From IMG/VR virus record IMGVR_UViG_3300042307_001070: DNA of 64,000 nt; one strand, 5' to 3'. This document shows, in pieces, positions 40,815 to 62,623 of this stretch. The position numbers and the translations under genes are program-made. The notes under the pieces are model-generated. The model was not told the DNA's origin, made no database searches, and was given only the letters and a program-made list of their open reading frames with translations. This DNA is from an uncultured virus (IMG/VR IMGVR_UViG_3300042307_001070) (taxonomy: Duplodnaviria; Heunggongvirae; Uroviricota; Caudoviricetes). Numbering within the stretch: position 1 is the first letter of the stretch; every line of letters begins with the position of its first letter.

Positions 40815-41749
40815 AAATCAGGAAAAGACCTGAAACGTTCTTTGAAAATCTAAATCCGACCGAAACAGTCGTCACAGTTAAAAAAAGCGAAGTAACACCT
40901 CCCTTTCTTTATATGTGAAACTAAATTAAGTCATTGGGCCGTGTATGGTCCATTAAAATAAACCACGAAAGTGGGATAAAGTGAACCCTTAGTGTGTTGG
41001 GTTTGCGTCTTGGTGAGTCTTCGGACTTGTCGAGATTGAGTACACAAGCGGGATACCGCTTAACCTTTAGTACCGAGGGCAACGCTGTAGGGAAAGTGGT
41101 TAGGTGAATTGGCAATGTGGGTTGTCAGTTTGAGATGGGAACATCGATAGGAATAACTCGTAGGGATATTGCAAAAAATAAGGTTATCCGATTTTATTAT
41201 TGCGTGTTCCATTATGATAGGATACTTAAAACCGAAAGGTATGTTAGTGTACAAGTGGTGTTGTTACTAACCTTGACCGTCCCCTACCAAGGGTTCGATC
41301 TCGAAGTAGTCTTGAAATATTGAGATGGGGACATTTCACGGGGTAGTTTGGTATTTCGTTGTTCAAAAGATAACGAATCTAAAGACGGACCACTACTTCG
41401 ATCAATCCACGACACCAAACTTATGGAGCTTTAATTCCAATTAAAATTACATTAAGCAAAAGTGTTCGTCAGGTGTCAATGAAAGGTGACTACATAGTAA
41501 CGAGCAGTTCGTTGCGTAGTGAGACCGCAAGTTGAACTACATTCTTACCAAAAACCTCTATTCCCGCAAGGAAGAGTTGGGACGGCAGTCTCGAAGAGAG
41601 TTGAGTAATGAGAGAGTAATTGATACCTCAAGGAGTGATTCACCTAAATAATCGTCACTGAGGAATACCATTCAAAAGATGGTGGATACGAAGGGAAACA
41701 ATAATCCTTCAAAAGGTTCTCAATAACAGGTATAATCTCAGCCTTTTTT
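40815..41749 (+). ncRNA. Large highly structured ncRNA (~930 nt), GOLLD-like candidate
   Basis: No credible ORF; raised GC; many hairpins with GAAA/GCAA/UUCG loops; 10-bp long-range helix 41301-41310/41392-41401; ends in a T tract. Confidence 0.75.
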
Positions 41750-52724: not shown

Positions 52725-52816
52725 AAAAATAATAAAAACACTTGTCAATTAAAAAAAAATACCTATATTTGTAGTGTAATTAAAACTTTTAGAAAAAACT
52801 ATATATTTATAACAAG

Positions 52817-52927
52817 ATGAGAACAACTAATAAACATATGAACATTTGTAACCCGAGCATTCAGTGGTCGTTTAACGTGTATCGTACGCTTAAGTCGCAT
52901 ATTAGGGCATTTTCATTTATGAGTTGA
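52817..52927 (+). CDS. Putative attenuator leader peptide 1 (36 aa)
   Basis: MRTTNKHMNICNPSIQWSFNVYRTLKSHIRAFSFMS* between promoter elements (TATATTTG 52764; TATTTAT 52804) and a terminator ahead of tRNA array 1. Confidence 0.65.
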   Translation: MRTTNKHMNICNPSIQWSFNVYRTLKSHIRAFSFMS

Positions 52928-52958
52928 TAAAGATTAACTAAAAATATAAAAGAAATAT

Positions 52959-52991
52959 AAGACCCGAACTCAAAACAGTTCGGGTTTTTTT
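52959..52991 (+). terminator. Intrinsic terminator/attenuator before tRNA array 1
   Basis: GACCCGAACT-CAAAAC-AGTTCGGGTT plus T tract. Confidence 0.85.
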
Positions 52992-53005: not shown

Positions 53006-53078
53006 GGTTCCTTAGTATAGTTTGGTAATATCCCGGCTTTGTAACCCGGAGTCATCAGTTCGAACCTGATAGGAACCT
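53006..53078 (+). tRNA. tRNA-Thr(TGT)
   Basis: GGTTCCT/AGGAACC acceptor; TT-TGT-AA; TTCGAAC. Confidence 0.85.
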
Positions 53079-53094
53079 CAAACAAAAAGAAAAA

Positions 53095-53111
53095 GTTCTT
53101 TGACATATTGG
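53095..53111 (+). promoter_or_regulatory. boxA-like antitermination element
   Basis: GTTCTTTGACATATTGG, identical at 57178. Confidence 0.65.
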
Positions 53112-53121
53112 CTTCATAAAA

Positions 53122-53205
53122 GGAGAGATAATCACAACGGCTTGTGACTCCGTCTTGAAAACGGCAGGTACTGAAAGGTATGGGGGTCGGCACCTCATCT
53201 CTCCT
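53122..53205 (+). tRNA. tRNA-Ser(TGA)
   Basis: GGAGAGA/TCTCTCC; CT-TGA-AA; long variable arm; atypical T-loop. Confidence 0.75.
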
Positions 53206-53213
53206 CTGTAAAT

Positions 53214-53298
53214 TGCGGGGTAGACGAATTAGGCAAAGTCACCAGATTTTGACTCTGGAGGTAAATTACCATTGGAGGTTCGATCCCTCCCCCCGTAG
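53214..53298 (+). tRNA. tRNA-Gln(TTG) with extended variable arm
   Basis: TGCGGGG/CCCCGTA; CCAGA-TT-TTG-AC-TCTGG; 15-nt variable region. Confidence 0.85.
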
Positions 53299-53312
53299 CT
53301 AAAAAACAATAT

Positions 53313-53386
53313 CTAGGTGTAGCTCAGTTTGGTAGAGCGGGGAGTTTGGGACTCTCAGGTCGCAGGTTCGATCCCTGTCACTTAGA
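53313..53386 (+). tRNA. tRNA-Pro(TGG)
   Basis: Canonical cloverleaf, TT-TGG-GA. Confidence 0.9.
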
Positions 53387-53390
53387 CAAC

Positions 53391-53466
53391 GTCTTCGTAG
53401 CTCAGTTGGTTTTAGAGCACTCCACTTTTAATGGAGGGGTCACAGGTTCGATTCCTGTCGGGGACA
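53391..53466 (+). tRNA. tRNA-Lys(TTT)
   Basis: CTCCA-CT-TTT-AA-TGGAG. Confidence 0.9.
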
Positions 53467-53535
53467 CAAAAAAATTTAGTAAAAAAGAACGATAGTTACC
53501 AAAAAATGGTTATCTTCGTTCCAAGAAACTAAAAT

Positions 53536-53609
53536 ACACTCTTAGCTCAGATGGTAGTAGCGGTTGTTTTACATACAACAGGTCACAGGTTCAAACCCTG
53601 TAGAGTGTA
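53536..53609 (+). tRNA. tRNA-Val(TAC)
   Basis: GTTGT-TT-TAC-AT-ACAAC. Confidence 0.88.
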
Positions 53610-53619
53610 CAAAAAATAA

Positions 53620-53700
53620 GGAAGTGTTGAGCATTTGGCTGGCTCGCTTGACTGTAGATCAAGTCCGAAAGGCGTGTAGGTTCGACCCCTACCACTTCCA
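53620..53700 (+). tRNA. tRNA-Tyr(GTA)
   Basis: CTTGA-CT-GTA-GA-TCAAG; variable arm. Confidence 0.88.
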
Positions 53701-53708
53701 CAACAAAT

Positions 53709-53797
53709 TGATGGGTGTCCCGAGATGGCCGAAGGGTCCGGCCTGTTAAGCCGATGAGAAATATTCTCCACCGTGGGTTCGAATCCCACCCCATCAG
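53709..53797 (+). tRNA. tRNA-Asn(GTT) with long variable arm
   Basis: TGATGGG/CCCATCA; CT-GTT-AA; variable stem GAGAA/TTCTC. Confidence 0.85.
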
Positions 53798-53847
53798 CTG
53801 ATTTTTTCCGAACTATCAGATATTTATTAATATAAAATGTTAATATT

Positions 53848-54390
53848 ATGGAAAGGTATTCGGAAAAAATTATATCTTTGAGGAAAGAAGGGAAAACCTA
53901 CAAAGAGATTACTAAAATTTTAGGTTGTGCAATGTCAACAGTGTCGTATCATTGTCAGATACATAAATTGGGGGATAACAACCAAAAAGTGACGGAAGAA
54001 GAGAAAGATAAACTTCAAAAATTATACGATGAAGTAGGATCCTTAAAAAAAGTTGCAAGGATAACAGGTAGGTCTTTTGAAACTGTTAAAAAACACGTTA
54101 ATAGTGTGGTTAGAGTTAAAAAGATTAGTGGTTCCCAATCGGTTATATTGTGGAGAAAGAGAACTAAAAAGAAATTAATTGAATATAAGGGGGGAGGATG
54201 TGAATTGTGTGGGTATAGTAAATGTGATTCAGCATTACAATTTCACCATAAAAACCCTGACGAAAAAGATTTCTCAATTTCTGGTAGAAGTTTGTCTTTT
54301 GACAGATTAAAAGAAGAAGTTGATAAATGTATGTTGGTGTGTTCTAACTGTCACGCCGAAATACACGAAAAAAATACCACCGAGAAGTGA
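53848..54390 (+). CDS. HTH + HNH homing endonuclease within the tRNA array
   Basis: Two HTH-like segments; CELCGY..LQFHH..CMLVCSNCHAEIH. Confidence 0.85.
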   Translation: MERYSEKIISLRKEGKTYKEITKILGCAMSTVSYHCQIHKLGDNNQKVTEEEKDKLQKLYDEVGSLKKVARITGRSFETVKKHVNSVVRVKKISGSQSVILWRKRTKKKLIEYKGGGCELCGYSKCDSALQFHHKNPDEKDFSISGRSLSFDRLKEEVDKCMLVCSNCHAEIHEKNTTEK

Positions 54391-54449
54391 CTGACGAGTC
54401 CGATGACGAGCTGAGGGGGTGGTTAAGAAATACCCCTAAATACGTACCA

Positions 54450-54522
54450 GTTCACGTAGCTCAATTGGTAGAGCGCCGATCTGATACGTCGGAGGTAATG
54501 GGATCGTAACCCGTCGTGAACA
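54450..54522 (+). tRNA. tRNA-Ile(GAT)
   Basis: CCGAT-CT-GAT-AC-GTCGG. Confidence 0.88.
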
Positions 54523-54580
54523 CAAAAAGGGGGATAACTTGTGTGGGTGCCCCAACTACTGCAGTAGTACCACACTCTAT

Positions 54581-54669
54581 GGAAAGTAAACCCTGAAGGC
54601 GACGGGACATGCCTGCTAAGCATTGTGATCGGTGAAAATCCGATTGTGGATCGTTACCACTGCTTTCCG
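54581..54669 (+). tRNA. tRNA-Ser(GCT)
   Basis: CT-GCT-AA loop; long variable arm; G discriminator. Confidence 0.8.
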
Positions 54670-54673
54670 CAAC

Positions 54674-54743
54674 TCCCGTATGATCAGGGATCAAAGTTGG
54701 CTCATATCCTACTTGAGGTTGGTTCAAGTCCAACATACGGGAC
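54674..54743 (+). tRNA. Atypical tRNA with CAT anticodon (Met/Ile2)
   Basis: TCCCGTAT/ATACGGGA, minimal D-arm GATC-AGG-GATC, CT-CAT-AT, T-arm GTTGG-TTCAAGT-CCAAC. Confidence 0.65.
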
Positions 54744-54749
54744 TTATAT

Positions 54750-54823
54750 GGTGTATGTAGCTCAGTTGGTAGAGTGTCGGTTTGTGGAACCGAAGGTCGT
54801 GGGATCGTGACCCATCATACACA
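54750..54823 (+). tRNA. tRNA-His(GTG)
   Basis: Encoded G-1; TCGGT-TT-GTG-GA-ACCGA. Confidence 0.88.
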
Positions 54824-54824
54824 C

Positions 54825-54992
54825 AAAAGATGATAAGAAGCGTAGAATGACAGACGTGGAGAGACGTGTCGCAAGGGTACAAACTAAGGATAGGTATTCA
54901 ATCTTAATTGTATTGATGTAATAACCCAACTCTCTAATGGTGTGTGAAGGTTTCCAAACCAAGATTCCTGATAAAGTCATTCATCATCTTTT
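54825..54992 (+). ncRNA. Candidate structured RNA between tRNA-His and tRNA-Trp
   Basis: AAAAGATGAT/ATCATCTTTT and GAATGAC/GTCATTC closing helices. Confidence 0.5.
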
Positions 54993-55033
54993 TTTGACAT
55001 CCGATGTCGGTCCCGAGCTAGGTCGGGCAATTT

Positions 55034-55104
55034 GCGTGGTACAGACAAGGTGTCGGTCAGGTCTCCAAAACCTCGACGGGTTAGTTCGATTCTAACACCA
55101 CGCG
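55034..55104 (+). tRNA. tRNA-Trp(CCA)
   Basis: GCGTGGT/ACCACGC; AGGT-CT-CCA-AA-ACCT; compact D-arm. Confidence 0.8.
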
Positions 55105-55114
55105 CAAATAACAA

Positions 55115-55187
55115 GGACTCGTAGCTCAGTTGGTAGAGCACAGGACTGAAAATCCTGGTGTGGTCGGTTCGATTCCGTCCGAGTCCA
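55115..55187 (+). tRNA. tRNA-Phe(GAA)
   Basis: CAGGA-CT-GAA-AA-TCCTG. Confidence 0.92.
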
Positions 55188-55204
55188 CAAAACAAATAGA
55201 AATA

Positions 55205-55660
55205 ATGAACAGAGTATTTAGAACGGTTAACGGTGAAACAATTCCTGATGTGGTAAAACATACCTTAGATGTTCTGAAAGAATGTCCATGGGTGGAAGTA
55301 CACATCGGTACAGACTCACAAAACCACAGAAGAAGTACCGTGTATGTTACGGTAATAGCTTATAGGTATGGGAATAGGGGTGTCCATTATATTCTTCACA
55401 AACAGAAAGTGAAAAAAATAAGAGATAAATGGACACGTCTTTGGAATGAGGCCGATTATTCAATTGAGGTTGCCGAATGGTTAACCAAAAAAGTAAAGGT
55501 GCAAGTTGAGATTGACTTAGATTATAATAGTCAGGAAAAACATTTCAGTTCAAAACTTGTTCCTCCTGTTGTTGGGTGGGCAACATCGTTGGGTTATAAA
55601 ACAAATATTAAACCTGACAACCAAATTGCAACAAAAGCGGCAGATCACCACTGCCGTTAA
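55205..55660 (+). CDS. RNase H-like YkuK (DUF458) family protein
   Basis: HIGTDSQ, RLWNEA, EIDLDYN, AADH; real start MNRVFR (the track start lies inside tRNA-Phe). Confidence 0.8.
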   Translation: MNRVFRTVNGETIPDVVKHTLDVLKECPWVEVHIGTDSQNHRRSTVYVTVIAYRYGNRGVHYILHKQKVKKIRDKWTRLWNEADYSIEVAEWLTKKVKVQVEIDLDYNSQEKHFSSKLVPPVVGWATSLGYKTNIKPDNQIATKAADHHCR

Positions 55661-55665
55661 TATAA

Positions 55666-55737
55666 GGACCTATGACCGAGAGATTTAGGTGCCGGTCTGC
55701 AAAACCGGTTAGATTGGTTTGATTCCAATTAGGTCCT
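55666..55737 (+). tRNA. tRNA-Cys(GCA)
   Basis: CCGGT-CT-GCA-AA-ACCGG; U discriminator. Confidence 0.88.
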
Positions 55738-55744
55738 CAATAAT

Positions 55745-55825
55745 ACCTTCGTGGTGGAACGGTAGACACGTCAGATTTAGGATCTGATGCCGTAAGGTGT
55801 GAGAGTTCGAGTCTCTCCGAAGGTA
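55745..55825 (+). tRNA. tRNA-Leu(TAG)
   Basis: TCAGA-TT-TAG-GA-TCTGA; variable arm. Confidence 0.9.
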
Positions 55826-55836
55826 CAAAAAAGATT

Positions 55837-57045: not shown

Positions 57046-57120
57046 ATGAAAAATTTACATATCATATTATTAGGCGGATTGGCGATAGCTGAGGATCGTT
57101 CCTATAAGGAGATGGTATGA
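57046..57120 (+). CDS. Putative attenuator leader peptide 2 (24 aa)
   Basis: MKNLHIILLGGLAIAEDRSYKEMV*; GAGATGG (57109-57115) is complementary to the terminator arm CCATCTC (57150-57156). Confidence 0.65.
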   Translation: MKNLHIILLGGLAIAEDRSYKEMV

Positions 57121-57145
57121 TAAATTAATTATATAATAAATTTTG

Positions 57146-57177
57146 AAACCCATCTCAATTACGAGGTGGGTTTTTTT
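57146..57177 (+). terminator. Intrinsic terminator/attenuator before tRNA array 2
   Basis: AAACCCATCTC-AATTAC-GAGGTGGGTTT plus T tract, directly followed by a boxA-like element. Confidence 0.85.
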
Positions 57178-57290
57178 GTTCTTTGACATATTGGTAAAAA
57201 AAAGTTTAAAAAAGATTTGGTAGATCAAAATAGATTACATATCTTTGTAAAACAAATAAGGAAAAAAGGTTCTTTGAAATATTAAAAATA

Positions 57291-57383
57291 TTGTGGTTGT
57301 AAGAAACGGGAAACTCGTAAAGTGCATTAACCTGTTGACTCAAGATGGTGAAACGAGAGTTTGAGTCAACTACTAAACTACAA
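57291..57383 (+). ncRNA. Candidate structured RNA
   Basis: TTGTGGTT/AACTACAA closing helix; perfect GTTGACTCAA/TTGAGTCAAC stem. Confidence 0.5.
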
Positions 57384-57392
57384 ATGGTATAT

Positions 57393-57464
57393 CGCAGGAT
57401 AGAGCAGTGGTAGCTCGCAAGGCTCATAACCTTGAGGTCGGAGGTTCGAACCCTTCTCCTGCAA
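57393..57464 (+). tRNA. Initiator-type tRNA-Met(CAT)
   Basis: C1:A72 mismatch; CAAGG-CT-CAT-AA-CCTTG. Confidence 0.88.
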
Positions 57465-57547
57465 CAACTAATAGCCAACCAAGCTTTACTACGATACGGG
57501 TAATACCTGTGGGTTAGGGGTGACGGTCAGGAGAGACTGACGATTAT

Positions 57548-57627
57548 GCTGACGTACCGGTGGATGCTTATATCATCTATGCCCGTAGAGGAAGTTTTAA
57601 ACGTTGGTTCGATCCCAACCGTCAGTA
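57548..57627 (+). tRNA. D-armless tRNA-like RNA with TAT (Ile) anticodon
   Basis: GCTGACG/CGTCAGT; TGGATG-CT-TAT-AT-CATCTA directly after the acceptor; normal T-arm. Confidence 0.55.
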
Positions 57628-57633
57628 CAATAA

Positions 57634-57705
57634 GCGGGTATCGTATAATGGTTATTACTCCACACTTCCAATGTGGAGATGAGTGTTCGATTCATTCTAC
57701 CCGCA
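57634..57705 (+). tRNA. tRNA-Gly(TCC)
   Basis: CCACA-CT-TCC-AA-TGTGG. Confidence 0.88.
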
Positions 57706-57710
57706 CAAAT

Positions 57711-57780
57711 GGGCCTGATGCCGACGGCAGGTCAACTGATTTGCAATCAGATTGTTTGGGTTCGATTCCCACAGTGTCCA
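57711..57780 (+). tRNA. tRNA-Ala(TGC), atypical
   Basis: G3-U70 pair, bulged acceptor, CTGA-TT-TGC-AA-TCAG, tiny D-loop. Confidence 0.7.
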
Positions 57781-57852
57781 CAAAAAAAGTTTGAAAAAGA
57801 TTTGGCAGATTGAAATAGATTACATATCTTTGTAGAACAAAAATAAAGAACT

Positions 57853-58134
57853 ATGACAAACACAGAGACAATTAAAACCGTAGGTTTAAAAATTACAAAA
57901 ATTGAAGGATACGATTATTGTTTGACAGGATACCCAAACAAAAACACAATCCGTAATTGGGAAGATGCGTATGAGTTTGAAAGTTTTGTACAAGATGTTT
58001 TAAAGATTGAAGGTGAGTTTGATTCTGAAAGTGGTCAGTTCTACGTGTACTTCAAAACTAAACAAAAGGCAACTGCGGCTTTGAATAAGATTGAAAAACA
58101 TTTCAAAAAAGTTGGTGAAATGTTAGGTTTGTAA
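57853..58134 (+). CDS. Hypothetical protein
   Basis: ORF after a TTTG..TATCTTTG promoter. Confidence 0.6.
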   Translation: MTNTETIKTVGLKITKIEGYDYCLTGYPNKNTIRNWEDAYEFESFVQDVLKIEGEFDSESGQFYVYFKTKQKATAALNKIEKHFKKVGEMLGL

Positions 58135-58142
58135 GAGTTAAT

Positions 58143-58216
58143 CGCCCGTTGGACAAGTGATTGAAGTCGCTTCCCTTTCACGGAAGAGATCATGGGTTTG
58201 AATCCCATACGGGTGA
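58143..58216 (+). tRNA. tRNA-Glu(TTC)
   Basis: CTTCC-CT-TTC-AC-GGAAG. Confidence 0.85.
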
Positions 58217-58217
58217 C

Positions 58218-58408
58218 AATGAGTGAGAGATACTCAAGATGTTTTTAAGTTCATACAAAACTTAACGGTAGAAGTTACACCTACGTTACGGGTACTCGTT
58301 GGGAATAAGGAAGGAAGGTTCTCCTCGCCCCCAAGTAAGAACTGACTTTTAAGTGGTAAGACACGTTGGGTTTTCAAATAGAAAAACTGTGAATATCTAC
58401 TCACCATT
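58218..58408 (+). ncRNA. Candidate ~190-nt structured RNA
   Basis: Termini pair: AATG-GTGAG-AGATA / TATCT-CTCAC-CATT. Confidence 0.5.
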
Positions 58409-58429
58409 AATCTCAGGTGGGGAAACTTT

Positions 58430-58500
58430 GGTCCATTGGTGAAATATTATCATATCTGACTGTCTATCAGAAGTCCTCGGAGAGTAACCGGGATGAACCG
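58430..58500 (+). tRNA. tRNA-Asp(GTC)
   Basis: TCTGA-CT-GTC-TA-TCAGA; G discriminator; atypical T-loop. Confidence 0.75.
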
Positions 58501-58522
58501 CACAAAGTGTTCTTTTAAAATA

Positions 58523-58663
58523 TTGATAGTGGTTTTCCCCACCTCAACGGATGTCGACAATCCAGAGTGGATCAGGAATTCAGCACCCTTTCTGCCGGGG
58601 CCCTGATAAAAGTCAGAAGAAGCAGTTAAGATTGGAGCGAGACGGGTACTCCATCACTATCAA
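58523..58663 (+). ncRNA. Candidate ~140-nt structured RNA
   Basis: TTGATAGTG/CACTATCAA closing helix right after a boxA-like site. Confidence 0.5.
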
Positions 58664-58670
58664 CATATTT

Positions 58671-58733
58671 AGTCAGGTGGCGGAAGGGTAAACGCACTAC
58701 AATCAGCAACAGGTTCGAGTCCTGTCCTGACTA
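58671..58733 (+). ncRNA. tRNA-like RNA (AGTCAGG acceptor), vestigial anticodon arm
   Basis: AGTCAGG/CCTGACT, D-arm, ACAGG-TTCGAGT-CCTGT. Confidence 0.6.
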
Positions 58734-58772
58734 CGTGGGAAAGATCTATCCCGAAAACAGAACATGGATCAC

Positions 58773-58868
58773 AAACACGTAAACCTAAGTACCTGTACAG
58801 CGGTGAGTAACGGGCTAAGTTATATACAATTCCTCGGAGCTGGGAGTAGAATGCTTAGGAGCGTGTTT
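58773..58868 (+). ncRNA. Candidate structured RNA
   Basis: AAACACG/CGTGTTT and CCTAAGTA/TGCTTAGG helices. Confidence 0.45.
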
Positions 58869-58959
58869 TTAAAATATAAAAAACTATGACACCATTATTG
58901 TTGATATTATTTATTATGTTTATCTTTGTAGTAAGAAAAAGAAGATAAAATTATTGGTT

Positions 58960-59075
58960 GGTCAGGAGTGTAATGAGGCACGGTGCCGAGTCCCCAAGAC
59001 CAATAGTCCCAGACACTTGTGGGTTCTATGGAGTCGTAAGGTTGCTCATTGTGGGTTCGACTCCCACCCTGACAT
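58960..59075 (+). ncRNA. tRNA-like RNA (GTCAGG acceptor) with enlarged central domain
   Basis: GTCAGG/CCTGAC; GTGGG-TTCGACT-CCCAC T-arm; ~65-nt insert where the anticodon arm would be. Confidence 0.55.
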
Positions 59076-59240
59076 CACCGGTTACTTGATTCCTGGTAGT
59101 AGAGTAACAACCATTGGGGAATTCGGGATGTCCCGCGAATGGTGGTGTAAGATAAGAGGAACTTACAACGGTAGAGTACCATAAACAAAAGAAACAAGAC
59201 GTAGAGGTGACTCTGCGTTGGCGCAAATCTCTACCAACTT

Positions 59241-59332
59241 AGTCAGGTTGGTACAAGGTCGGTTCGAGTCCGATGGAAGGTCATGGATGTCGGGTAGCTC
59301 CCTGTAGAGAGGTTCGATTCCTCTCCTGACTA
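59241..59332 (+). ncRNA. tRNA-like RNA (AGTCAGG acceptor) with two T-loop hairpins
   Basis: AGTCAGG/CCTGACT; TCGG-TTCGAGT-CCGA and AGAGG-TTCGATT-CCTCT. Confidence 0.55.
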
Positions 59333-59371
59333 CACTTGACATTATTAAATTAATGTCTTATTATTATACAA

Positions 59372-59445
59372 AACCGGGTAGCTCAGCTGGTAGAGCAATC
59401 CTTTTTAAACAGGACGTGTCATTGGTTCAATCCCTTTCCCGGTTT
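59372..59445 (+). tRNA. Pseudo/atypical tRNA with 8-nt anticodon loop TTTTAAAC
   Basis: AACCGGG/CCCGGTT, canonical D-arm, weak T-stem; own TTGACA-N17-TATTAT promoter (59336-59364). Confidence 0.55.
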
Positions 59446-59469
59446 TTTTATTTATAAAATTAAAATATT

Positions 59470-60547: not shown

Positions 60548-62167
60548 ATGAAATATCGTTTAAGAATAAAAATAACATTAGTTATCGCCGCTTTACTAAT
60601 GATTGCATTTATGTGTGTTAAAATTGCGGTTCTTATTGGGTTACGAGAATCTACAGAAACAACTAGATGGCTAGAATTTTTTGGGGTTATTTCTCTCATC
60701 CCTATATCTGCGTTATTAATTAAAGACTTTATCAATTCCACTAAAGATACTGTATCTAAAGAATCGGTGGATAAATTGGTAGAATTAAAACATTTCTTAG
60801 ATTCTTCTTCCATCATATCTAAAGCTGATGCAAAAGGAAAGATTACATACGTTAATCAAAAATTTACCGAAATCTCAGGTTATTCATTAGAAGATGTTCT
60901 TGGTAAAGACCACAATATTGTAAATTCTGGAACACACCCAAAAGAGTTTTGGTCTAATATGTATAAAACTGTTGTTGTGAATAAGGGTCTTTGGAATGAG
61001 GTTTGTGTCAATAGGGCAAAAGATGGAAGTCTTTATTATGTGGATACTTTTATTAAATGTAGTTTTGATGAAAACGGTAAATTGTTAGAGTTTATGTCAA
61101 TTCGTCAAGACTTAACTTCTTTAAAAAAGACTGAACAAGAAATATCAAATAGAATGAATGCGATTAACAGATCAAATGCCGTTATTGAATTTGATTTAGA
61201 TGGTAACATAAAATTTGCAAATGATTTATTTTTAAGTACTTTAGGTTATGATTCGCACGATGAACTTGTTGGAAAACATCATAGTATATTTGTTGAAGAT
61301 GTGGTAAAAGACTCTGAAGAATATTCAAACTTTTGGAAAACTTTAAAAGGTGGTCAATTCTTTATGGGTGAAATCATTAGAAAGAAAAAAAACGGATCTT
61401 TAATTTATCTCCAAGCGACATATAACCCCATCATAGGAACCGATGGGAAACCATATAGAGTAATGAAAATCGCCACTGACATCACCCAAAGTATTAATCA
61501 ACAAATGGAGATTGAAAAGAAAAATACCTATTTAGAGCATGCCGCAAAGATATTAAGACACGATATGCACTCTGGTATTAATACATATATGCCAAGAGGA
61601 TTAAGCTCTTTAGAACGAAGATTAACTCCTGAAGATATAAAAAATTTAAAAATAGAATCCCCACTTAGAATGATTAAAGAAGGTTTAAAACATTCTCAAA
61701 AAGTATATAAAGGGGTTTACGAATTTACCAATTTGGTTAAAAGAGATGTTGTTTTAAATAAAGCGGAATGTGATTTAAAATTAATCCTATCTGATTATCT
61801 ATCATCTACTGCATATATTAGTCAAGTTATTATAGATGAGTTACCAACTATTGAGGTAAACGAAGCACTATTTTGTACTGCGGTTGATAACTTGATTAGA
61901 AACGGTTTAAAGTATAATGATTCGGATTCTAAATTTGTTAAAATAACTTCAGACGAGAATTATGTTTACATTCAAGATAATGGTAGAGGAATCACACAAG
62001 AAGATTTTGATCACCTATGTAAACCATATACCAGAAAAGAAGGACAAAAAGAATCTGGCACTGGTTTGGGTTTAAATATTTGTGTTGCTATATTAGAAGA
62101 ACACGGGTTTAATATTACCTGTGAGAAAAATGAAATAGGAACAAAAATGAAAATAAAAATAAAATAA
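60548..62167 (+). CDS. Membrane-anchored PAS-PAS sensor histidine kinase
   Basis: Two N-terminal TMs; two PAS/PAC domains; H-box LRHDMHS; NLIRNGLKYN, DNGRGI, GTGLGL. Confidence 0.92.
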   Translation: MKYRLRIKITLVIAALLMIAFMCVKIAVLIGLRESTETTRWLEFFGVISLIPISALLIKDFINSTKDTVSKESVDKLVELKHFLDSSSIISKADAKGKITYVNQKFTEISGYSLEDVLGKDHNIVNSGTHPKEFWSNMYKTVVVNKGLWNEVCVNRAKDGSLYYVDTFIKCSFDENGKLLEFMSIRQDLTSLKKTEQEISNRMNAINRSNAVIEFDLDGNIKFANDLFLSTLGYDSHDELVGKHHSIFVEDVVKDSEEYSNFWKTLKGGQFFMGEIIRKKKNGSLIYLQATYNPIIGTDGKPYRVMKIATDITQSINQQMEIEKKNTYLEHAAKILRHDMHSGINTYMPRGLSSLERRLTPEDIKNLKIESPLRMIKEGLKHSQKVYKGVYEFTNLVKRDVVLNKAECDLKLILSDYLSSTAYISQVIIDELPTIEVNEALFCTAVDNLIRNGLKYNDSDSKFVKITSDENYVYIQDNGRGITQEDFDHLCKPYTRKEGQKESGTGLGLNICVAILEEHGFNITCEKNEIGTKMKIKIK

Positions 62168-62185
62168 AAAACAAAAAAGAAAAAA

Positions 62186-62623
62186 ATGATTGATTCAATT
62201 TTATTAGTAGATGATGAGGATTTATTCCATTTGGTATTTGAAGACGCTTGTTCGTTACTTGACATAAGTTTGTCTTTAAATGCGTTAAATAGTTCTGACG
62301 AGGCAGCAAAACTATTTCAAAAATGGTTCCAGGATGGTGACAATAATGATAAACCTGAATGTGTGTTTGTTGACTTAAACATAATTGGTAGTTCTTTTGA
62401 TGGTATAGAGTTAATTAGAAAAGTTAATTTTGAATATGGTAATCACGTAGTTATTGGTATCATATCATCATCAAACGAACCGGAAGAACAAGCAAAAGCG
62501 CTCCAGGCTGGTGCTCAATTCTGGATTATTAAATCAGATGATATTGAACCTCGTTTAGAAGAGTTTAGAAAAGATTATGACGGTTACAAAAATAGAACCT
62601 TACCTTTTAAAGTATATAAATGA
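62186..62623 (+). CDS. Single-domain response regulator (receiver)
   Basis: LLVDDE, FVDLN phosphoacceptor, ISSS, IIKS. Confidence 0.9.
   Translation: MIDSILLVDDEDLFHLVFEDACSLLDISLSLNALNSSDEAAKLFQKWFQDGDNNDKPECVFVDLNIIGSSFDGIELIRKVNFEYGNHVVIGIISSSNEPEEQAKALQAGAQFWIIKSDDIEPRLEEFRKDYDGYKNRTLPFKVYK

Follow-up and report, generated by a model that had tools for sequence, protein, structure and literature searches.

Leader 1, a short open reading frame standing before a phage array of 16 tRNA genes, and the intrinsic terminator that lies between them probably act as a ribosome-dependent transcription attenuator, gating the array and sensing the supply of the tRNAs that it encodes. We read the ORF, the terminator, a rival helix and a match between leader codons and downstream anticodons, as well as the conservation of each, from aligned sequences and predicted folds. 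The window, by which we mean the whole 64,000-nucleotide stretch analysed, belongs to a virus record of 73 kb, whose completeness is estimated at 25%.

A short leader ORF and a terminator precede tRNA array 1

52764..52771, plus strand: possible host-type promoter element, a weak match to TAnnTTTG
52804..52811, plus strand: TATTTATA motif, a possible phage promoter directly 5′ of the start codon
52817..52927, plus strand: leader 1 ORF of 36 codons, heading the 16-tRNA array 1
52959..52991, plus strand: intrinsic terminator of −16.3 kcal (hairpin 52959-52988, U7 tract 52985-52991)
53006..55826, plus strand: tRNA array 1 (12 tRNAs at the default ARAGORN threshold, 16 at a lowered threshold)
53848..54390, plus strand: HTH and HNH endonuclease gene inserted in array 1
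55205..55660, plus strand: RNase H-like (PF04308) gene inside array 1

Array 1 runs in the order Thr, Ser-TGA, Gln, Pro, Lys, Val, Tyr, Asn, Ile-GAT, Ser-GCT, Met-CAT, His, Trp, Phe, Cys and Leu-TAG, with the Ser-TGA (53122) and Ser-GCT (54581) tRNAs called at the lowered ARAGORN threshold only and missing at the default. A consensus terminator scan listed the 52959-52988 hairpin on the minus strand only; folds place the U tract on the plus strand. Among 40 aligned leaders, 48 alignment cells in the terminator were changed on both sides, a count reached in 0 of 500 shuffles. A short conserved leader ORF upstream of the genes to be regulated, and an intrinsic terminator between that leader and the tRNA genes, are both features expected of an attenuator.

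The Bacteroidota −7 promoter consensus is TAnnTTTG, and because this pattern matches window-wide at 66 sites on the plus strand and 54 on the minus strand, its occurrence at 52764..52771 is weak evidence for a promoter. The TATTTATA motif occurs 19 times on the plus strand and 10 times on the minus strand of the window and precedes most leaders examined, and may thus serve as a phage promoter. A search for RNA evidence listed 8 runs, each with fewer than half of the sequence words, and assembled contigs covering the leader in run X7 begin 5′ of the putative promoter and may represent DNA.

A degenerate pattern built on codons 1-10 and searched against viral sequences returned 74 stretches, 71 with ORF and terminator and 3 cut by a contig end, which together with earlier loci gave 48 distinct sequences. 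At least 120 metagenome stretches matched the pattern. Eighty had long flanks (64 with ORF and terminator, 15 cut by contig ends, 1 an unrelated long ORF), and a tRNA lay no more than 200 bases away in 59 of those 64 leaders; the other 40 stretches included 35 with a terminator and 33 with a tRNA in view. The analysed set, drawn from the viral and long-flank metagenome stretches, holds 87 distinct leader-terminator sequences and 78 distinct ORFs. No second copy of leader 1 was found in any of four large relatives searched, 0 of 8 pattern matches in bacterial genomes had leader, terminator and tRNA together, and the best 30 of 1165 GenBank phage records all matched at tRNA positions and none over the leader. 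The RNase H-like protein matched 6 GenBank phage records, all below 60% identity.

Gaps in the aligned leader ORFs are triplets, both other frames carry a stop in all 78 distinct ORFs, and the ORFs share invariant Trp and an invariant N-terminus, the search pattern itself accounting for part of the N-terminal constancy. The conserved ORF, its triplet gaps and its invariant residues would also suit a small protein with its own function, in which case the terminator would merely end that protein's transcript and the tRNAs would use a separate promoter. We regard this explanation as very improbable: only about 14 bases separate the U tract from tRNA-Thr, residue order differs between relatives while the residue set stays, the end of the ORF covaries with a terminator arm, and non-homologous leaders have the same layout.

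Leader codons match the tRNAs of the array

52826..52894, plus strand: sensor codons 4-26, covering 16 of the 16 codon boxes of array 1

The earlier note had stressed the amino-acid diversity of leader 1, and codons 8-28 do hold 16 distinct residues, with both Ser boxes, Leu as CTT and Ile as ATT only. At least 16 residues per 63 bases occurred in 2.1% of 100,000 stop-free shuffles, in 9.2% of 30,000 shuffled ORFs when each was scored on its most diverse 21-codon window, and in 0.7% of 15,358 windows from 60 long ORFs. Residue diversity alone is therefore modest, mildly unusual and not decisive, and too weak as proof; the key is instead the exact codon boxes of the downstream tRNAs.

We split the code into 24 boxes, dividing Leu, Ser, Arg and Ile by anticodon, and found that 22 of the 23 sensor codons fall inside array 1 boxes, compared to an expected share of 0.65. 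The single off-array codon is CGT, and an Arg-ACG tRNA, missing here, is present in 16 of 26 related arrays. Codons for D, E, G and A, which belong to the second array, make up 0 of 858 sensor codons in 38 leaders (background 23%), and G appears in 2 of 63 leader ORFs in a larger set. The match tracks the anticodon and not the amino acid, with AGA before Arg-TCT, CGN before Arg-ACG and ATA before Ile-TAT. The putative regulatory codons are cognate to the product of the operon, as in an attenuator, the product here being tRNA and not an amino acid.

G-ending codons are frequent, as had been claimed: codons 8-26 have 6 of 7, where the long ORFs of the window would predict 0.93. Across relatives they account for 177/249 in lineage A, 27/41 in lineage B and 11/18 in lineage D, but 12/41 in lineage C, the rows of this comparison being related. 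Read by U34 tRNAs, such codons may be the slowest and hence the most sensitive.

We then compared nine module types, and each leader fit its own array best (9/9 by sensor codons; 8/9 by whole ORFs, a version free of the choice of sensor ends, which were set after the folds had been seen). An equally high score was given by 1 of 362,880 leader-array assignments, which is not a true P value because several leaders are homologous and arrays within one genome are complementary. Left out of this match were three modules repeating a type, unassigned or doubtful tRNA calls (at 59371 in the window; in L022, Pyl, Cys and an unassigned call; in L063, Lys-CTT), and the L159 Arg-ACG and Ser-TGA tRNAs, which are not in the Rfam list; Ala, likewise not there, was retained.

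Leaders follow rearranged arrays

57046..57177, plus strand: leader 2, 24 codons (G, A, E, D, Ile-ATA, Leu-TTR), with antiterminator and terminator
57393..58501, plus strand: tRNA array 2 (Met-CAT, Ile-TAT, Gly, Ala, Glu, Asp)
L162:4718-9860, L159:5090-9650 and L063:2262-2398: non-homologous leaders of the same layout before other tRNA blocks

Leader 2, found in 37 distinct copies, repeats the design of leader 1 before the second array with a stronger switch, and its rival helix has 17 cells changed on both sides (0/500 shuffles as high). The earlier expectation that leader 1 would have the weaker switch held (−1.4 versus −7.6 kcal). In lineage C, the tRNAs form three blocks (Pro/Asn/Asp/Gly/Thr/Ala; Leu/Arg/Leu; and one beginning Glu/Val/Phe), each with its own leader ORF and terminator; one leader is rich in P, N, D, G, T and A, one is rich in Leu and AGA-Arg, and the leader 1 homologue gained E and lost P, N and L in step with its array, with T kept. 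No ORF was found before the terminator of the Leu/Arg block in a lineage C subgroup (L161, L132, L101). In lineage D, Thr and Leu-TAG moved to array 2, and leader 1 is without both while leader 2 has T and CTT. In the more distant phage L063, the block of Thr, Gly, Ser, Leu, Leu, Arg, Met and Ile is preceded by a leader with T/G/S/L/R/I.

Some leaders fit poorly. The L059 match is poor (5 of 12, P=0.23), window leader 2 matches in 8 of 14, its Leu-TTR codons lacking a Leu-TAA call, and L076 has an intact full leader before Trp, Cys and Leu only; the lineage C leader 1 homologue retains Thr in 8/8. Leaders lag behind tRNA loss in L076, in the window's CGT without Arg-ACG and in leader 2's Leu-TTR without Leu-TAA, and this lag, like the poor L059 match and the Thr retained in lineage C, counts against the attenuator reading.

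We also observed leader variants with other residue sets in L260 and L111. Two loci, L050:8700-8760 and L059:11580-11640, have a leader-2-like terminator where a long gene, and not a short ORF, ends; the final few codons there resemble those of leader 2, possibly reflecting fusion or loss of a leader. A promoter-like match at 57240, 3′ of the leader 2 terminator, could bypass that terminator. Directly before tRNA-Met lies a conserved structured RNA of about 95 bases (57292-57385, plus strand) that is not a tRNA; it had no Rfam match, 3 of its 26 predicted pairs were changed on both sides in 8 aligned copies, and a pseudoknot is possible. The plus strand further carries an atypical tRNA read as Ile-TAT (57536-57628), a tRNA with an 8-base anticodon loop (59371-59446), and, within 58200-59340, several stretches that are tRNA-like or rich in hairpins, have no gene call and are covered by contigs of related phages. 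Relatives L004 and L011 have tRNAs with a TTA (stop) anticodon.

A predicted rival helix to the terminator

52905..52965, plus strand: antiterminator, a long hairpin suggested by covariation and folds and weak in the window copy (5′ strand at 52905-52921, 3′ strand at 52945-52965 and, between them, an inner hairpin at 52922-52939 that spans the stop codon)

The 3′ strand of this antiterminator extends into the 5′ arm of the terminator, and at the base of the helix GGG at 52905-07 pairs with CCC at 52963-65 of that arm, pairs that are retained in 36-38 of 40 sequences. Across the 40 aligned leaders, 32 cells of the rival helix were changed on both sides (0/500 shuffles as high), counts that lean towards the helix because it was derived from the same alignment, and as with all our covariation controls the shuffles ignore relatedness. 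Both-side changes fell in 5 of its 22 pairs, a number that 93 of 500 shuffles also reached, and most sequences break four of the pairs.

The earlier note had proposed a different antiterminator, in which bases 52916-52925 pair with 52967-52975 of the terminator. The two strands are present and complementary (−2.2 kcal as an intramolecular helix), but their pairing is not conserved: 1 cell was changed on both sides, 484 of 500 shuffles scored as high, and the three central pairs are broken in 17, 23 and 20 of the 40 sequences. This pairing had P≤0.003 in 64 of 64 masked folds, being nearly absent because its 5′ strand pairs in the local hairpin across the stop codon.

In the masked folds, which assume a ribosome footprint of −17/+12, a transcript ended before the terminator 3′ arm formed the rival pair with P of 0.76-0.99 for A-site codons 12-26 and lost it from codon 27. 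This switch point, between codons 26 and 27, coincides with the end of the sensor codons. Off-array codons cluster after the predicted switch, as expected if stall positions match regulatory codons and given the assumed footprint. In 63 distinct ORFs of lineages A and B, 4 of 1149 codons from codon 8 to the switch were off-array versus 61 of 652 after it; the corresponding counts were 7/127 versus 31/80 in lineage C and 0/119 versus 23/70 in lineage D. With the ribosome at the stop codon, the rival pair returned to P of 0.27 in the window and to more in some relatives, and a second, upstream pairing around 52866 was produced by a stall at codon 8 alone (P of 0.71).

The earlier note had named two results that would speak against its model, a terminator that forms regardless of masking and homologues devoid of compensatory changes. 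The former was observed for the window copy at equilibrium, where each of the 8 masks left the terminator of the full transcript forming with P=1.00; if this copy switches at all, it must therefore do so kinetically. The latter was not observed, as compensatory changes exist in both the terminator and the rival helix. The central proposal, a leader peptide and terminator with ribosome position deciding between outcomes, draws support from conservation, covariation and the codon-array match, but with another antiterminator strand and with a window terminator that folds irrespective of the mask.

The rival helix of the window gained −1.4 kcal, a value that 87 of 200 shuffles matched in one test and 71 of 150 in another, and folding at 15°C made it no stronger relative to shuffles (99/150). 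Thirteen other modules gained between −3.7 and −16.8 kcal, strengths reached in 0-15 of 200 shuffles. The median gain was −2.15 kcal in 22 window-type leaders (best −7.2 kcal), and −6.0 (41 leaders), −17.7 (9), −8.0 (8) and −10.6 kcal (7) in other lineages, where it was lost with the ribosome at the stop and where unrelated strands serve as the rival helix. Most lineage B copies are predicted to switch at equilibrium as well. A predicted antiterminator that would exclude the terminator and overlaps the ORF end is thus present family-wide, while that of the window copy is no stronger than in shuffles.

These folds bear on an alternative that we consider unlikely, in which the family are attenuators but the window copy has decayed to a nearly fixed, leaky terminator, its codons kept by descent and its array fed by leak or internal promoters. 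A window rival helix no better than shuffles and a terminator that wins at equilibrium fit such decay, as do the unchanged L076 leader before a shrunken array and matches to the TAnnTTTG consensus inside array 1 (53511, 53677 and 53873). Against it, the architecture is intact in 22 distinct window-type leaders, which gain as much as −7.2 kcal, the GGG:CCC pairs are retained in nearly all aligned sequences, and the rival pair reaches P of 0.8-0.99 before the 3′ arm exists. We conclude that the leader 1 observation is real and strongly patterned and that leader 1 is probably a codon-matched attenuator, with a real chance that the window copy is weakened.

The phage and its relatives

Protein matches in the window include a primase, an SbcCD-like protein, a sigma factor and an endolysin, and relatives with the same leader 1 reach 257-304 kb. 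A bS21 match was present in 3/3 near-complete relatives, 2 of them over the cut-off, and none was found in the window's own record, a fragment. Bacteroidota lake phages that encode bS21 have genomes of 290-330 kb, about 32% G+C and many tRNAs (PMC9723584). The phage studied here resembles them in size class, in G+C content, in its many tRNAs and in the bS21 of its near-complete relatives, and from this likeness we infer a lake jumbo phage with a Bacteroidota host. The main text of PMC9723584 has 0 occurrences of 'attenuat', 'leader' and 'terminator', and the window's record, a fragment without a bS21 match, is a candidate member of this phage group.

Elsewhere in the window we noted a GOLLD RNA (41339-41744, plus strand, 330 bits), many plus-strand ORFs between 47418 and 56985 that have in common a motif of about 20 residues at the N-terminus, starting MKKIIRLTES, and a PAS-PAS histidine kinase (60548-62623, plus strand) followed by a response-regulator-like ORF, unusual phage cargo.

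Proposed mechanism

We propose that RNA polymerase would transcribe the leader with a ribosome following behind, so that codons 4-26 sample each box read by the downstream tRNAs. When decoding is fast, the ribosome would cover GGG 52905-07, the terminator would fold and transcription would end before tRNA-Thr. When a cognate tRNA is scarce, the ribosome would lag at or before codon 26, allowing the long hairpin to hold the CCC of the terminator arm; with this rival hairpin in place while the polymerase crosses the U tract, the tRNA genes would be transcribed. We infer leader translation, its coupling to transcription, read-through and tRNA supply as the signal from this arrangement. No consensus helix was found in the 5′ part of the aligned leaders that could act as a protector (1:2) helix, and since the rival helix also forms without a ribosome, translation failure should open the switch as well. 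The regulatory range of the window copy may be small because its rival helix is weak. A model of attenuation predicts low sensitivity from few regulatory codons (PMC1183508), and low sensitivity would therefore be expected of leader 1, which has one or two codons per tRNA.

The leader might instead sense, in a general way, how fast translation runs or whether amino acids are short, its diversity serving only to sample many residues. Its 16 residues in 21 codons would suit such a role, as would a rival helix that any translation block would free, and a missing and an uncharged tRNA look alike from sequence. We nevertheless think a general sensor quite improbable, since none of the sensor codons encodes D, E, G or A against a background of 23%, Arg, Leu and Ile are divided between leaders at the level of isoacceptors, and leaders track array rearrangements. 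Within the attenuator reading, the anticodon-level split argues for tRNA supply over amino-acid supply as the signal, and extra tRNA presumably would not cure amino-acid starvation.

More tentatively, the leader of each tRNA block may be an evolving table of its anticodons and an alarm for tRNA-cutting host nucleases, in which loss of a listed tRNA would stall the ribosome and switch on replacement genes, an inducible counter-defence by attenuation; that host defences are the trigger is conjecture. The purpose of phage tRNA arrays is an old question, and a sensor listing an array's anticodons would imply tRNAs made on demand and point to shortage as the trigger, such that help with codon usage, replacement of cut host tRNA and response to starvation become testable alternatives. 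Attenuation would extend to non-coding RNA genes with product feedback, and leaders would predict present or former tRNAs of their arrays, including genes that tRNA finders miss.

Comparison with known systems

Rfam models of the Thr, Trp and Phe leaders scored 24.7 of 55, 20.6 of 41 and 20.7 of 55 bits over this region, below their gathering scores, and Rfam scans gave no covariance-model match to a T-box. In the E. coli pheST leader and in whiB7-type uORF attenuators, a ribosome stall within the uORF raises transcription of translation-related genes. Those systems respond to a single charged tRNA or to stalling in general, and the genes under their control encode proteins, whereas leader 1 precedes a matched set of tRNA genes. 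T-box riboswitches are likewise tRNA-responsive and act by antitermination, but sensing by leader 1 would need an ORF.

Phage tRNAs rescue against tRNA-cutting defences in an expression-dependent manner (PMC11555353) and have been described as counter-defence (PMC11464382), and the arrays studied here resemble them as phage tRNA arrays able to offset host tRNA loss. In PMC11555353, however, the level of expression is set by a strong promoter, and 'attenuat' and 'leader' have 0 occurrences in its main text. Full-text literature searches, covering few subscription journals, returned no paper that describes attenuation acting on tRNA genes of phages.

The closest likeness is to the attenuators controlling amino-acid operons (trp, his, leu, thr, ilvGMEDA and ilvBN, as well as pheA; PMC1183508), which share with leader 1 a leader ORF, product-linked codons, mutually exclusive antiterminator and terminator, and biased synonymous codons. 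The account in PMC1183508 describes such synonymous bias in regulatory codons and stresses a polymerase pause site. Leader 1 differs in preceding phage tRNA genes, in codons that follow anticodons, and in spreading one or two codons over each of 16 boxes where amino-acid attenuators carry a run for one to three amino acids (PMC1183508); no conserved protector or pause helix like those of trp and his was found in the aligned leaders. Although it stands outside the Rfam leader and T-box families, leader 1 shows at the family level the sequence features of an attenuator and would appear to work like one of the trp or ilv type.
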